From sequence record OQ599310: 64,000 nucleotides of DNA, one strand, 5' to 3'. The translations under genes were made by a program, and so were the position numbers. This DNA comes from Escherichia phage 55. The notes below the pieces were generated by a model that was not told the DNA's origin, searched no databases, and saw only the letters and a list, made by a program, of their open reading frames with translations. Positions 1 through 5,764 of this stretch are shown piece by piece. Positions within the stretch are counted from its first letter, which is position 1. Every line of letters starts with the position of its first letter.

Positions 1-402
1 AGTATGTACTTGAACACCGGGCATTATTCTCACGGTGATGCAGGATTCATTGCGCCTAATGATGTGTTGATTCATATTAGTCGTTCTGGTAAAACTGAAG
101 AAATGATAGGCGTGGCTAAGCATCTTAAAATGATTCGACCGAACGTCAAACAGATTCTGTTGCATTGTAACCCAGACATTCCACAAGAAAATGAAGCCCT
201 TTTTGATTACTCTTTCTGTACAGGCATCGCGGTAGAGGTTGATGAGAATTCTCTGGCTCCGACCATGTCCACTACATTGTTGTTAGCGCTTATCGATACG
301 TTTGCTATCAACCTTTCGTCTGAACGTGGATTTACCTCTAATGACTTCCTTAAGTTCCATCCAGGCGGTGCACTAGGTGCCATGTTACGAGGCGAGCAAT
401 GA
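1..402 (+). CDS. SIS-domain sugar-phosphate isomerase, KpsF/KdsD-like (arabinose-5-phosphate isomerase family); 5' end lies outside the window
   Basis: Translation aligns to the C-terminal half of the KdsD SIS domain (HGD.G, ISRSG, APT.STT, HPGGALG motifs); no CBS domains follow; the Met at 4 is internal to the alignment so the gene starts upstream. Confidence 0.7.
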   Translation, partial: SMYLNTGHYSHGDAGFIAPNDVLIHISRSGKTEEMIGVAKHLKMIRPNVKQILLHCNPDIPQENEALFDYSFCTGIAVEVDENSLAPTMSTTLLLALIDTFAINLSSERGFTSNDFLKFHPGGALGAMLRGEQ

Positions 403-542
403 AAGCAATAACAATAGGACTTTTACTATTGATGCTTGCCATGACTATCTACTGGAGCTTAACGGCTCCAGTAATGATTCCAACACTTGTAATTGGATGG
501 ATTATGATTGGTCTACAGGCAAAGTATGAATGCTTTAACTAG
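399..542 (+). CDS. small hydrophobic protein (47 aa, two predicted TM helices)
   Basis: ATG overlaps the stop of the upstream gene (ATGA); continuous ORF with strongly hydrophobic translation; below the ORF-track length cutoff. Confidence 0.3.
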   Translation: MKAITIGLLLLMLAMTIYWSLTAPVMIPTLVIGWIMIGLQAKYECFN

Positions 543-555: not shown

Positions 556-583
556 ACACCTACTTACCAATGAGGACTTCAAC

Positions 584-2269
584 ATGAAAAAAGCTGTTAT
601 TCTTGGTGCTGGATTAGCAACTCGTTTATATCCAATTACTCACCATATTCCTAAGGTGCTTGTTAACTATAAACAAGACACTATTCTGAGCAATTTGTAT
701 ACAATTTATTCTGACCTTGGCGCAGATGAAATTATTGTAGTAGTTCATTCAAAATTTGCTGAAACTGTTCGAGCTTATTGTGAGCAAGAAGGGTTCAATG
801 TGACTATTCGTACAGTTGATGAAGCGTATGGATCTGCTTATGCTCTTGCTAAATTACACAAAGATTTAGACGGCCATAATGTAATTGTTAACTGGTGTGA
901 TATTATTCCTGATTTTGGTTCATGGTCTTGGAATGTCAACGCAATCTATGTTAAGGGTGATGAATGTCGATATAATTTCGACGGTGAAAATATCACTAAC
1001 GTAGGTTCAACAGGCGGTAATGTTGTAGGAATTTATCAGTTCAAAGACTGGGAATTCTATATGGGTTCTACCGATGAGGAAATTCATGAATACTGCAAAG
1101 GACGTGATTTCGTAGAATTCCTTTACAGCGGCGCATTCAATAAATCAGAGCTTATGAATATAATTGATTTAGGTGATATGCCTAAACTTGAAAAAGCTCA
1201 TGAAGTTCGTGAACTTAATCGTAGTTTTAATGCAGTTGAAATTGGTGAAGAAACTGTAACTAAATTCGCATTAACCGAACAGGGACGAGCTCTTCAGAAA
1301 GATGAGATTTCATGGTATTTGAAAGTGAAATCAGATTCAGTTCCTCAGTTAGTTTCTGTTAATGAAAACAATTTTGAAATGGAACGTATTAAAGGTAAGC
1401 CGGCATTTGAATATATTAAATCCAAATCAAGTCTTGCTCGTCCACAAATTGTTGATGCAATTTTAGATGCACTGAAATTCAGCACAGACACGTATTTTGT
1501 AAGTCCTGAAACTGTTCGTCGTGATTTCACTAAAGAATTCTATACGAAAGTTATTGATCGTTGTGAAAGCATTCAACCATTGATTGATTCATTTGGTAAA
1601 ATCACACATGTGAACTACACTAAGATTGGACGTCTGAAGCCAATGTTGAAACAAGCTTTAGAACATCTTATTCGTTATCATAACCGTTCTCAGGGACAGT
1701 ACTCTGTTATTCATGGTGACCCGAACTTCAGTAATACTATGATTACTGATAACGGCGAAGTCAAGTTTATCGACCCTCGTGGATATTTTGGCGAAACCAA
1801 GATTTACGGGCCAAAATTGTATGACGAAGCTAAAGTGCTTTATGCTGTTTCAGGTTATGATGAATTCAATGCTAATCCGACCTGGGGACAGTTTACTATT
1901 GATGAAACAACTTGTAATGTGACTATTAACATCAATCCATTAATTTACAAATATGGAAAGATGAGTTCGTTTAACGAGTATCATCATTTGGCGGTGGCAA
2001 TTATCTGGATTGCATTAGGTGGTTATTTCAAGAATAATCCACTTAAAGCGGTAGCCGCATATTATAAAGGTATGGAACTTCTGACTAAGCAATTACGTAA
2101 CATGGGCCGTGTACTTCAAGACGGCTCTATTAGTTATGACGTAGCAGAACCTGTAACGGCTACTCTGATTACAAAAAATCCTGGTAAATGGGTACTAACT
2201 GATAAAGAAACTGGTGTTTCCTATCGTCCAATCGGTGGCGATATCACTCACCAATGGGAACGAATCTAA
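584..2269 (+). CDS. bifunctional sugar-1-phosphate nucleotidyltransferase (N-terminal, RmlA/GalU-like) fused to APH/NahK-like anomeric sugar kinase (C-terminal)
   Basis: N-terminus ILGAGLATRLYPIT..PKVLV matches the G-x-G-T-R-L-Y-P-I-T nucleotidyltransferase signature; C-terminal region has HGDPNFSN catalytic loop and FIDPRG typical of aminoglycoside-phosphotransferase-fold kinases; GAGGA RBS upstream. Confidence 0.65.
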   Translation: MKKAVILGAGLATRLYPITHHIPKVLVNYKQDTILSNLYTIYSDLGADEIIVVVHSKFAETVRAYCEQEGFNVTIRTVDEAYGSAYALAKLHKDLDGHNVIVNWCDIIPDFGSWSWNVNAIYVKGDECRYNFDGENITNVGSTGGNVVGIYQFKDWEFYMGSTDEEIHEYCKGRDFVEFLYSGAFNKSELMNIIDLGDMPKLEKAHEVRELNRSFNAVEIGEETVTKFALTEQGRALQKDEISWYLKVKSDSVPQLVSVNENNFEMERIKGKPAFEYIKSKSSLARPQIVDAILDALKFSTDTYFVSPETVRRDFTKEFYTKVIDRCESIQPLIDSFGKITHVNYTKIGRLKPMLKQALEHLIRYHNRSQGQYSVIHGDPNFSNTMITDNGEVKFIDPRGYFGETKIYGPKLYDEAKVLYAVSGYDEFNANPTWGQFTIDETTCNVTININPLIYKYGKMSSFNEYHHLAVAIIWIALGGYFKNNPLKAVAAYYKGMELLTKQLRNMGRVLQDGSISYDVAEPVTATLITKNPGKWVLTDKETGVSYRPIGGDITHQWERI

Positions 2270-2655
2270 TGCACCGTGTAGAAAACATGCTTAATCTTTG
2301 TTTTGATGTCGATGATTGTATAACAGAGTGGAATAACAATCGTGATTACGTGAACTTCAAACCAGACGTCGAAATGGTGTCTGCCATTAATGCCTTGTAT
2401 GATGCAGGGCATACCATAACGCTTTACACTGCTCGCGGTATGAAGTCAGTAGGTCCCGGTCGTATAGCAATTGACATTCTCCCGAGTCTGATTCAGAACT
2501 TGGAAAACATTGGCTTGAAGTACCATAATTTGCTAACACATAAACCAGTATATGATTGGATTATCGACGACAAAGCTATGCGTCCTGACGAATTCAAAGC
2601 TCTTATGAATAAAGGCGAATTCGAAACATTTAAATCATATAAACCGAATCTATAA
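2254..2655 (+). CDS. HAD-superfamily phosphatase (small, resembling the phosphatase domain of polynucleotide kinase)
   Basis: Motifs CFDVDDCIT (motif I), AGHTITLYTARG, YDWIIDDKA parallel the pseT phosphatase-domain motifs [21 protein letters not shown] in the same window; alternative start at 2269 (TAATG overlap). Confidence 0.55.
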   Translation: MGTNLMHRVENMLNLCFDVDDCITEWNNNRDYVNFKPDVEMVSAINALYDAGHTITLYTARGMKSVGPGRIAIDILPSLIQNLENIGLKYHNLLTHKPVYDWIIDDKAMRPDEFKALMNKGEFETFKSYKPNL

Positions 2656-2709: not shown

Positions 2710-3870
2710 ATGAACACTTTTAAAATCGGAACGAATTTTGATTTAGCTCTTCTTGATAAAATCGTAGAGCTCAATAAAACCTATCCTAATAGCTTGATAA
2801 ACGAAGTATATGGCTCTACAAGAGAAATGGCTTTTGTAGCAGCCAGACCTGATTTTAGGCTTCCTGACGTTGACAAAAAGATGTTAGAAGACTACGTTAA
2901 ACGTTGTAACGAATTAGGTATTTGCTTTAACTATACACTCAACACGATAAATCCTGGTTCAAAAAGAGAACTAGTTGAGTGGAAGAAGAAAGCTATTCAG
3001 GATTATGTTCAGTATCTTTGGTCAATAGGCGTATGGCGTATTACTATCGCTAACCCTGTTGTTATGGAAATTGTTCGTGAAGTCAATAAAGATATTGAGA
3101 TTGAAGTTTCAACAATTCTACATGTCGATGCTGTAACTCAAATCAAATACTTGCACGACCAATATAACATCAAAAAAGTCTGTTGCGGAATTCATAAGAA
3201 CCGTTCAGTTTCTTTCCTGAAGCGTGCAGCAGAGTTTTGCAATAAGAACAATATAATATTTGAAGTTCTTGTAAATGAGTTCTGTTCTAATGCTGGTAAA
3301 GGGTATACAACACATTGTAGTTATCGTGACTCTTGCTATATTTTCCATAGTACTGATGTTACCGCTGATGATGCTAAATCCTTAAATGGATATCCAATGC
3401 AGCACTGTATTAAAGCTCGTGATACAGATCCATTTAACTGGTTGAGAACTCGTTTTGTTCGTCCTCAAGATTTGAAACTTTATAATGATATTGGTATCAC
3501 TCAATTCAAAGTTTCAGGACGTACAGGTAGCACAGACTACATTTTGAAAGTTCTTGAAGCATACGCTTCTGAAAAGTTTGAAGGTAATTTGTTAGAACTG
3601 TGGAAGCCTTTAGAGACTATTTTCACTCTTGAAAACGAAACTGAGTTTTCACATACAGTAAATATTGAAACCTCTTTGTTAGATGGCTTTTTAGAAAAAA
3701 GGTGGTTCAGACATCCAGATTTTGATTGTGCTAATGAAATCTGTGGGTCAACGTGTACATATTGTGAAAGGTATTATAAACGTCAATTATCTAAAAACGG
3801 GTTAGCAGAAAACTCCATATCTATTATTGATATAACTAGCTCTGATGACGCTTTGAGATACCCGGAATGA
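2710..3870 (+). CDS. Cys-rich protein with divergent peptidase-U32-like motifs (family that includes Fe-S dependent hydroxylases RlhA/TrhP/UbiU-V); function unknown
   Basis: Segments FNYTLNTI, EVLVNEFCSNAGKGYTTHCSYRDSC and FKVSGRTGSTDY resemble the U32 core and GR motifs; assignment is from memory of the family signature and is tentative. Confidence 0.4.
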   Translation: MNTFKIGTNFDLALLDKIVELNKTYPNSLINEVYGSTREMAFVAARPDFRLPDVDKKMLEDYVKRCNELGICFNYTLNTINPGSKRELVEWKKKAIQDYVQYLWSIGVWRITIANPVVMEIVREVNKDIEIEVSTILHVDAVTQIKYLHDQYNIKKVCCGIHKNRSVSFLKRAAEFCNKNNIIFEVLVNEFCSNAGKGYTTHCSYRDSCYIFHSTDVTADDAKSLNGYPMQHCIKARDTDPFNWLRTRFVRPQDLKLYNDIGITQFKVSGRTGSTDYILKVLEAYASEKFEGNLLELWKPLETIFTLENETEFSHTVNIETSLLDGFLEKRWFRHPDFDCANEICGSTCTYCERYYKRQLSKNGLAENSISIIDITSSDDALRYPE

Positions 3871-4148: not shown

Positions 4149-4865
4149 ATGGGAAAACATAACACAATGAAATATATCAAAGCCGCAGATTTTCAAACCG
4201 CATTTAAAGCAGTCAATCGTGAAATTTTAGAAAACCCGGAATTCGTAACCGATTCTCGTATTGGACGTTGTAATGAAATTGGGTCTATGACAGTAGTTGT
4301 TGACAATCCATCATCATTCAAAATGACCGACCCACGTATTAACCGCATCTCTTATGAATATGCCGAAGACTTCTGGAAGTTTATGATTTCTGGTGGTACT
4401 GATGCAGAAGAAGCGTTTAAGGCATATCCTAATGTCGCTAAATTTATTTCTAAACCTAAATCAGACGCTTTGCCTGCAAACTTCAACACTTTCTACGGTC
4501 CTCGCATTGCGGCCCAATTACCAGCTCTTCTAAAAGAACTTAAAGAGAAACCTAACTCTCGAAGAGTTGTGTTCCAAATTCTAGAAAGTTCTGATCAGGC
4601 TTTGCTTGATTCGGACGAAACACTTGAATATCCATGTACTGACTCAGTAACTTATTATATTCGTGATGGTAAGCTTTATACCCACTGCCATATGCGTTCT
4701 CAGAACTGTGCTGTTGTTATGCAGTTGGATTTTTATCTCCAAGGAAAATTACTTCATTATATCGCTAACGAATGCGGTGTAGAAGTTGGTGATTATACTC
4801 ATACCATGGTAAGTGCCCATGTGTTTGAACGTGATTTTGATTATGTTAAAGGATTCCTTGACTAA
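4149..4865 (+). CDS. 42: dCMP hydroxymethylase (thymidylate-synthase-fold), gene 42
   Basis: TS-family core YPCTD...GKLYTHCHMRSQN with Cys nucleophile; size 238 aa; sits upstream of uvsX as gene 42 does in T4. Confidence 0.7.
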   Translation: MGKHNTMKYIKAADFQTAFKAVNREILENPEFVTDSRIGRCNEIGSMTVVVDNPSSFKMTDPRINRISYEYAEDFWKFMISGGTDAEEAFKAYPNVAKFISKPKSDALPANFNTFYGPRIAAQLPALLKELKEKPNSRRVVFQILESSDQALLDSDETLEYPCTDSVTYYIRDGKLYTHCHMRSQNCAVVMQLDFYLQGKLLHYIANECGVEVGDYTHTMVSAHVFERDFDYVKGFLD

Positions 4866-5764
4866 TGGCTATTTTCCGCGTACCAATCTTGAGTATGCGG
4901 TCTTATGAAACTGGACAGTATGCTATCCTTAAGGATGGCAACTTCCAACTTCATTTGCACCGTGCTAATCCAGGTGATGTGATTACATATCCACGTAATG
5001 CATCTGATATTAAAGAATGCGAACGTCTTTTCCCAGAATTTAAGTTTGTTCCATTATGGTATAAAGATAACGCGTATAACACTCGTAAATATTTCTGGTC
5101 TGAAAATGAATTTGTGGTTGATTCATTAATTGCTTATTATGATTGTGATTTTCTAATCACAGATATCACCGGATATGACGGCGCTTTTGATGTTGAATTC
5201 AATTTCAATATCACTGCAGACCCTAATAAACCACGTTTTTATATTGACGAATTCTTAAAAACCGATATGTTGTCGGTTAATCGTTCACTTCAAACTACTG
5301 TGTTGAATGAACGTCAAAAAGAAGTGCTGGTTAACGCAGGTGCAGATGGTAATAAGATTATCGTAACGCAGAAAGTTATACGTCCTTCCATCATGCAGCG
5401 TCTTGTAGGTGATTTGGCCCCTATTCATCTAGATGGTATTTTTCATCCATTTCGAATTAGTGACCCATGCTATCGTTTTGAACAAGTGGTTGAATGTGCA
5501 ATTCAATTAGGTCAACCGCTTTATATAACCGATCCAAATAATAGTTTCGACAGAAATAAGTATCCTGAAGAAGCGCTGATTCGAATTTTTAAACCAACTA
5601 AAACTGAGTACTATCAAATTCTTAAAGGACGACCGAAGATTCAATATTTCGAAAATCCTGAAGAAGTATTCCATCCAGGTCTTGGCGAGTTCATCTACTT
5701 TAATGCTTTAATTTCTTCGCCGTATAATATACCTAAATACGAAGATGTCGTAATCGAGGAATAA
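4865..5764 (+). CDS. hypothetical protein occupying the locus of T4 beta-glucosyltransferase; candidate DNA-modifying transferase
   Basis: 299-aa ORF, TAATG overlap with gene 42; no similarity I can recognise to T4 beta-gt. Confidence 0.45.
   Translation: MAIFRVPILSMRSYETGQYAILKDGNFQLHLHRANPGDVITYPRNASDIKECERLFPEFKFVPLWYKDNAYNTRKYFWSENEFVVDSLIAYYDCDFLITDITGYDGAFDVEFNFNITADPNKPRFYIDEFLKTDMLSVNRSLQTTVLNERQKEVLVNAGADGNKIIVTQKVIRPSIMQRLVGDLAPIHLDGIFHPFRISDPCYRFEQVVECAIQLGQPLYITDPNNSFDRNKYPEEALIRIFKPTKTEYYQILKGRPKIQYFENPEEVFHPGLGEFIYFNALISSPYNIPKYEDVVIEE

Follow-up and report, generated by a model that had tools for sequence, protein, structure and literature searches.

Mosigvirus DNA contains 5-hydroxycytosine, and not hydroxymethylcytosine, as its modified base, and this base carries one or two arabinofuranoses (PMC13326640; PMC13390438). 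In RB69, the proteins gp51, gp52:53 and gp55 were assigned to the conversion of ribulose-5-phosphate to NDP-arabinofuranose, and gp52:53 was equated with AfhE of HY126 (taxid 3141802; PMC13326640). As reported in PMC13326640, He et al. (2026) found in vitro that AfhE is a bifunctional D-arabinose-5-phosphate kinase/UDP-D-arabinose pyrophosphorylase and that AfhF, a phosphatase of the gp51 type, dephosphorylates the 1,5-bisphosphate between the two steps catalyzed by AfhE. The RB69 gene had been renamed ORF53_52c by Thomas et al. (2018), who proposed that its product and the SIS protein ORF055c serve the synthesis of UDP-arabinose (PMC6024577). The family of fusion genes considered here is thus already known, having been recognized in 2018 (Thomas et al.) and characterized biochemically for one homolog in 2026 (He et al., as cited in PMC13326640), and the gene described below adds nothing beyond these two studies and PMC13326640. 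The interest of the enzyme lies in its supply of the sugar donor for arabinosylation of 5-hydroxycytosine, a hypermodification through which RB69-like phages, and many others among the Straboviridae, are better protected from restriction and CRISPR nucleases. It is also relevant for phage therapy and for the enzymatic synthesis of UDP-arabinofuranose.

The logic of this pathway is identical to that of the NDP-heptose pathways represented by HldE with GmhA/GmhB and by HddA/HddC. In NDP-heptose synthesis, the SIS isomerase GmhA delivers an omega-phospho aldose, which is converted to a bisphosphate by a kinase, dephosphorylated by the HAD phosphatase GmhB and activated to the NDP-sugar by a nucleotidyltransferase (NTase). 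HldE combines kinase and NTase in one protein and leaves the phosphatase separate, as is the case for the phage enzymes. The kinase of HldE has a PfkB/ribokinase fold and its NTase a cytidylyltransferase fold, while HddA is a GHMP kinase; no Pfam matches to PfkB, CTP_transf_like or GHMP were found in the phage protein. HldE is a functional analogue and not a homolog, its substrate being a heptose instead of a C5 furanose, and we infer that the arabinose scheme would be a fold-independent copy of the GmhA/HldE/GmhB logic. The same two folds as in the phage protein, an APH-type anomeric sugar kinase and a minimal sugar-1-phosphate uridylyltransferase, are found in AmgK and MurU of the MurNAc salvage pathway in Pseudomonas. 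AmgK and MurU are usually separate proteins and salvage a free sugar without a phosphatase step, whereas the phage enzyme is a fusion in de novo synthesis. LicA (choline kinase) and LicC (CTP:phosphocholine cytidylyltransferase) differ by their choline substrate, their CDP-alcohol product and their genomic context, and the 5-methylthioribose kinase MtnK is a stand-alone enzyme of methionine salvage whose substrate carries a methylthio group and not a phosphate as 5-substituent. FKP from Bacteroides and AFKP80 from Leishmania, which are bifunctional fucose/arabinose kinases and GDP-sugar pyrophosphorylases, resemble the phage protein as NTase-kinase fusions that produce NDP-sugars, including GDP-D-arabinose, but they contain a GHMP-fold kinase, start from a free pyranose, use GDP as the activating group and have no phosphatase step.

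The window analyzed here, a stretch of 64,000 nucleotides of Escherichia phage 55 (OQ599310), is 97.7–98% identical to RB69 and other Mosigvirus genomes over its first 6.4 kb. Close to its start it contains a single unbroken ORF of 561 codons (Table 1), a length that has a chance probability of about 2e-18 given the base composition of the window. The encoded protein is 98.9% identical to the product of the RB69 locus over 561 aa and matches PHROG 4098 from end to end (residues 1–561 against profile positions 1–559, E = 1.5e-294). RB69 gp52:53 and HY126 AfhE belong to the same family and agree with it in the length of 561 aa, the domain order and the gene neighborhood, and nothing substantive differs; the identity value refers to RB69, and AfhE is included by way of its equation with gp52:53 in PMC13326640. 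The RB69 reference annotation divides the gene into the overlapping ORFs ORF053c and ORF052c, and in our alignment this reference has one C more than the window. Thomas et al. (2018) resequenced this region and reported that C-29116 does not exist, and that a single band was expressed, consistent with the predicted 63.9 kDa (PMC6024577). The initial annotation had left room for a frameshift or stop between the two halves of the protein; since resequencing removed C-29116 and a single band was expressed, this point is settled in favor of the fusion. A real or programmed frameshift is ruled out by the unbroken ORF in the window, the single extra C in RB69 and the resequencing (PMC6024577). We regard an antisense ORF of 61 aa at 1345..1530, which sits within the strongly conserved coding region, as spurious. 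A scan for promoters and terminators yielded 24 sites, compared to 23.5 expected from shuffled sequence, and we therefore claim no transcription signal.

Table 1. Coordinates of the fusion gene, its parts and neighboring genes in the window.
Feature	Position	Strand	Evidence or remarks
SIS-domain arabinose-5-phosphate isomerase gene, 3' part, RB69 gp55 ortholog	4..402	+	Pfam SIS; PHROG 5670 'arabinose 5-phosphate isomerase', E = 1e-76; RB69 annotation; cut by window start
Shine-Dalgarno sequence GAGGA	571..575	+	8 nt 5' of the ATG at 584; read from the sequence
Whole gene, 561-aa bifunctional protein, RB69 ORF53_52c (gp52:53) ortholog, AfhE type	584..2269	+	ORF, PHROG 4098, RB69 identity, AlphaFold
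Sugar-1-phosphate nucleotidyltransferase domain, residues 1 to about 208	584..1207	+	Pfam PF00483, Foldseek, invariant residues
APH/choline-kinase-fold kinase domain, residues about 210–505	1211..2098	+	Catalytic set K227, E241, H377-G-D379, N384, D397
HGDPNFSN catalytic loop (HxDxxxxN phosphotransferase motif), residues 377–384	1712..1735	+	
FIDPRG, residues 395–400	1766..1783	+	Contains the metal-binding Asp (D397), which corresponds to the Asp of DFG
C-terminal tail of about 56 aa, short beta strands, residues 506–561	2099..2266	+	Alignment occupancy 0.56, pLDDT 84–93
HAD-type phosphatase gene, RB69 gp51/AfhF type	2269..2655	+	NCBIfam TIGR01689 capsule-biosynthesis phosphatase, E = 2e-13; RB69 annotation; role from PMC13326640
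Thymidylate-synthase homolog, RB69 gp48 ortholog, 5-hydroxy-dCMP synthase (makes the acceptor base)	4149..4865	+	Pfam Thymidylat_synt, E = 2e-15; PMC13326640
Putative first DNA arabinosyltransferase, RB69 gp46:47 ortholog	4865..5764	+	PHROG 3891; role from PMC13326640, Table 1

An AlphaFold model of the 561-aa protein, built on an alignment of 78 homologs with identities down to 27%, reached a pLDDT of 95.0 and a pTM of 0.92. The N-terminal domain matched the Pfam model NTP_transferase (PF00483) with 39.1 bits against a cut-off of 21.2 (E = 8e-10), and the same model was matched by 66 of the 78 family members. This domain contains the motifs GAGLATR (residues 8–14), K24, D106, GGNVVGIY (144–151) and DLGD (195–198), and thereby the G-x-G-x-x-T-R ... 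K signature together with the conserved acidic residues; G10, R14, K24, D106, D195, G197 and D198 were invariant throughout the alignment. When the full model was compared to the PDB with Foldseek, only NTase matches were obtained, including MurU (target TM 0.72), LicC, RmlA, GalU and GDP-mannose pyrophosphorylases, and no two-domain structure of this kind was found. The best solved-structure match of the family profile was HddC, the heptose-1-phosphate guanylyltransferase of the GDP-heptose pathway (E = 8e-14). All sequence motifs named in the initial annotation were present, GAGLATRLYPIT at residues 8–19, HGDPNFSN and FIDPRG, but the glycine-rich signature has the form GxGxxTR, which is also that of LicC, and not GxGTR.

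Because Foldseek with the full model gave only NTase matches, the C-terminal domain was modelled on its own, and its predicted structure has the bilobal fold of a kinase. K227 (beta3 Lys), E241 (alphaC Glu), H377-G-D379, N384 and D397 are invariant or nearly so, and P398, R399 and G400 of the FIDPRG motif are invariant in the family alignment. This conservation of the full catalytic set and the fact that 15 of the 78 homologs reach Pfam APH, with a best E-value of 6e-10, establish the kinase fold of the domain. For the single protein from the window, PF01636 (APH) gave no match at E ≤ 0.01, and the only Pfam matches of the C-terminal domain were sub-threshold hits to Fructosamin_kin, EcKL and RIO1. 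A family profile restricted to this domain found nothing significant among the sequences of solved structures; its best alignment (E = 0.028), to RIO2 and FN3K, covered only the catalytic loop. As Pfam, NCBIfam, the full family profile and the domain-specific profile all returned no significant sequence-level assignment, the C-terminal domain is assigned by its predicted fold and its motifs. HMM-based domain annotation, which had been proposed as a check, thus placed NTP_transferase above its cut-off and APH below it. In structural comparisons, choline kinases scored 15.0, fructosamine-3-kinase 14.6, glucosamine kinase 14.3, maltokinase 14.2, methylthioribose kinase 13.0 and NahK 11.5. Judged from the model, these values form a continuum, with choline kinases marginally highest, and the substrate is not readable from the fold. 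The suggested comparison of an AlphaFold model with AmgK/MurU and NahK agreed in the folds, with MurU among the best matches of the N-terminal domain, but NahK was not the closest match of the C-terminal domain, which is not nearer to anomeric kinases of the NahK/AmgK type than to other APH-fold kinases. The central statement of the initial annotation, that an NTase and an APH-fold kinase are fused in one phage protein, is confirmed by the ORF, Pfam, the model and Foldseek; a real bifunctional enzyme was correctly dissected from sequence alone, which gives the case some worth as a positive control. The tail behind the kinase domain occurs in phage-type proteins of about 550 aa and in some relatives of about 780 aa, but is missing from relatives of about 520–540 aa and from those with four domains. 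In four of the relatives of about 780 aa (P0106, P0107, P0111 and P0116), the tail is followed by a cupin/mannose-6-phosphate-isomerase-like region.

In the window, the genes are arranged in the order SIS isomerase, fusion, HAD phosphatase, U32 homolog, thymidylate synthase (TS)-like gene, glycosyltransferase and dNMP-kinase-like gene, and the arabinose-5-phosphate isomerase, the phosphatase, the TS-like 5-hydroxy-dCMP synthase and the glycosyltransferase are thus all found in the neighborhood of the fusion. The ATG of the HAD gene (2269) overlaps the TAA stop codon of the fusion in the sequence TAATG (2267–2271), and an alternative possible ATG lies at 2254; gp51-type phosphatases resemble GmhB (PMC13326640). 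In IME08, the HAD gene, the TS homolog and a glycosyltransferase come after the fusion, and on a viral-looking contig of 350 kb a homolog with 35% identity lies within an SIS ... GT2, fusion, HAD, TS homolog arrangement. In Tenacibaculum phage PTm5, the phosphatase adjoining the fusion (L006, 7571..8275) is a member of the histidine-phosphatase superfamily (PF00300, E = 9e-23) and not of the HAD type, so that by sequence a non-orthologous enzyme has replaced the one for the middle step. Together with the four-domain proteins described below, these layouts tie the kinase and the NTase, as far as sequences can indicate, to an isomerase-fed and phosphatase-dependent route and not to salvage of a free sugar.

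We estimate a probability of about 0.8 that the gene encodes a bifunctional AfhE-type enzyme, the Mosigvirus ortholog of RB69 gp52:53, in the pathway to UDP-D-arabinofuranose for DNA arabinosylation, with the following mechanism. The upstream SIS isomerase would convert host ribulose-5-phosphate to arabinose-5-phosphate, and the C-terminal APH-fold kinase would use ATP to phosphorylate the anomeric C1-OH, yielding arabinofuranose-1,5-bisphosphate. The downstream, translationally coupled HAD phosphatase would take off the 5-phosphate, after which the N-terminal NTase would form UDP-arabinofuranose from arabinofuranose-1-phosphate and UTP. Phage glycosyltransferases would finally move the arabinofuranose from UDP-arabinofuranose onto 5-hydroxycytosine in DNA, with the gp46:47 ortholog (4865..5764) as a putative consumer of the UDP-arabinose. 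For the gene in the window, the unbroken ORF, the two folds, the preservation of the catalytic residues, the orthology to RB69 and the conserved context were established directly, and by its sequence the protein can be expected to behave like the RB69 and HY126 enzymes, for which the activities and the order of steps come second-hand from the literature.

The order of the kinase and the phosphatase is the point at which a different pathway has to be weighed, as it is not distinguishable from sequence or genomic context. The HAD enzyme could release D-arabinose, or host or gut arabinose could be used, and the free sugar would then be phosphorylated at C1 and activated to NDP-arabinose as by AmgK/MurU or FKP. 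Such a salvage-type conversion of a free sugar, which had also been assumed in the initial annotation, would agree with the two folds, which salvage pairs of the AmgK/MurU type share, and with Table 1 of PMC13326640, in which the phosphatase comes first (gp51 'dephosphorylates Araf5p to Ara') and the kinase domain acts on free arabinose ('phosphorylates Ara to Araf1p'). The text of the same paper, citing the in vitro work on HY126 AfhE and AfhF, instead gives arabinose-5-phosphate as the substrate of the kinase and the 1,5-bisphosphate as the substrate of the phosphatase. This published substrate and the context with isomerase and phosphatase genes speak against salvage; the conserved linkage to an arabinose-5-phosphate isomerase argues for de novo supply. 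Among the invariant basic residues of the family are R213, R326, R399, K417 and K488, and this abundance of invariant Arg and Lys would fit an anionic substrate. Free arabinose is mostly a pyranose. The sugar found in the DNA is arabinofuranose (PMC13326640), which would be better explained by a route starting from a 5-phosphate that locks the sugar in the furanose form. We therefore accept the published order of kinase and then phosphatase, since in vitro work is given as its basis and since the 5-phosphate would maintain the furanose, and regard activation of free arabinose as improbable.

That the protein itself is a DNA glycosyltransferase was first considered for RB69 ORF053c and is still suggested for TH1_060 of Thanatos, on account of the GT-A-like Rossmann fold of the N-terminal domain and the conserved-domain label 'glycosyltransferase family A' (PMC6024577; PMC12838424). 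This is hardly credible in view of the passed NTP_transferase model and the pyrophosphorylase signature GxGxxTR...K, the poor scores against phage glucosyltransferase models (PMC6024577), the failure of TH1_060 to move sugar to DNA in vitro (PMC12838424) and the presence of dedicated GT-B arabinosyltransferases in the cluster (PMC13326640). Purified TH1_060 also had no pyrophosphorylase activity with xylose-1-phosphate and any NTP (PMC12838424), but xylose-1-phosphate may simply be the wrong substrate. A LicC-LicA-type fusion activating choline, ethanolamine or another amino-alcohol as a CDP derivative, as the top structural matches might suggest, is contradicted by the context and the chemistry and can practically be dismissed.

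The arrangement had been described as unusual for a T-even genome, but this claim of rarity is wrong, as the fusion is present in full length in 364 of the 373 matching phage records. Hosts of the phages that carry it include Escherichia, Acinetobacter, Klebsiella, Vibrio, Serratia, Shewanella and Tenacibaculum. A search of a library with 1.84 billion representative proteins detected 1,252 relatives of the kinase domain at E ≤ 1e-3, and most of the best 150 of these have the kinase at about position 200–250 of a protein of about 480–630 aa, which corresponds to the same fusion. Public labels for the fusion gene are 'hypothetical protein', 'bifunctional protein GlmU' or 'capsular polysaccharide biosynthesis protein', and the HAD phosphatase gene is mislabelled as 'phosphoheptose isomerase' in PHROG 1238 and many GenBank records. 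Given the number of GenBank records that mislabel the two genes, their annotation should be corrected.

Several relatives of about 890–955 aa (P0084, P0088, P0089, P0091, P0092, P0096 and P0108) join HAD, SIS, NTase and kinase domains in this order and thereby put the whole pathway from ribulose-5-phosphate to the NDP-sugar into one chain. The gene for P0084 (L002, 6001..8781) is flanked by genes for MutS-HNH, a eukaryote-type RNA polymerase subunit Rpb2 and an Atg3-like protein, which is a giant-virus-like context, and P0091 originates from a eukaryotic transcriptome set. In the searchable papers, we found no description of four-domain fusions from giant viruses. Given that such single polypeptides, of about 890–1010 aa, occur in a eukaryotic transcriptome as well as on contigs bearing hallmarks of giant viruses, it is possible, if still doubtful, that the NTase-kinase unit is the conserved core of a widespread cassette for conversion of omega-phospho-sugars to NDP-sugars and not an invention of phages. 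If this were true, some eukaryotic giant viruses would make NDP-D-arabinofuranose or a close relative from ribulose-5-phosphate with one protein, and this NDP-sugar would serve capsid or fibril glycans or DNA modification.

Three further observations concern the neighboring genes. A U32-family protein is encoded inside the 5-hydroxycytosine/arabinose cluster at 2710..3870 (+), with a Pfam Peptidase_U32 match (E = 7e-11) and a weak match to UbiU, and this gene is absent from the clusters of IME08 and PTm5. The U32 members RlhA (ho5C2501 in rRNA) and TrhP (ho5U34 in tRNA) are required for C5-hydroxylation of cytidine or uridine in RNA, while UbiU/V are hydroxylases that act independently of O2, and prephenate serves as oxygen donor (PMC5727448; PMC6599085; PMC6747719; PMC10990095). 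By analogy, the U32 gene might offer an anaerobic route to 5-hydroxy-(d)cytosine beside the TS-like enzyme, which depends on O2 and flavin. In PMC13326640, the U32 gene appears only as 'sugar or heterocycle reductase', and neither there nor in other searchable papers did we find a link of the phage gene to hydroxylation. The putative arabinosyltransferase is a single ORF of 299 aa in the window, compared to ORF047c and ORF046c in RB69 (L001, 7868..8768). Here, the RB69 reference contains a second single-base error, an extra T in gp46:47 (GTAG[T]GTGA), and PMC13326640 likewise attributes the split of gp46:47 to a sequencing error. Between the isomerase and the fusion genes, a small ORF of 36 codons at 432..542 (+), the equivalent of RB69 ORF054c, specifies the very hydrophobic peptide MLAMTIYWSLTAPVMIPTLVIGWIMIGLQAKYECFN and may encode a small membrane protein.
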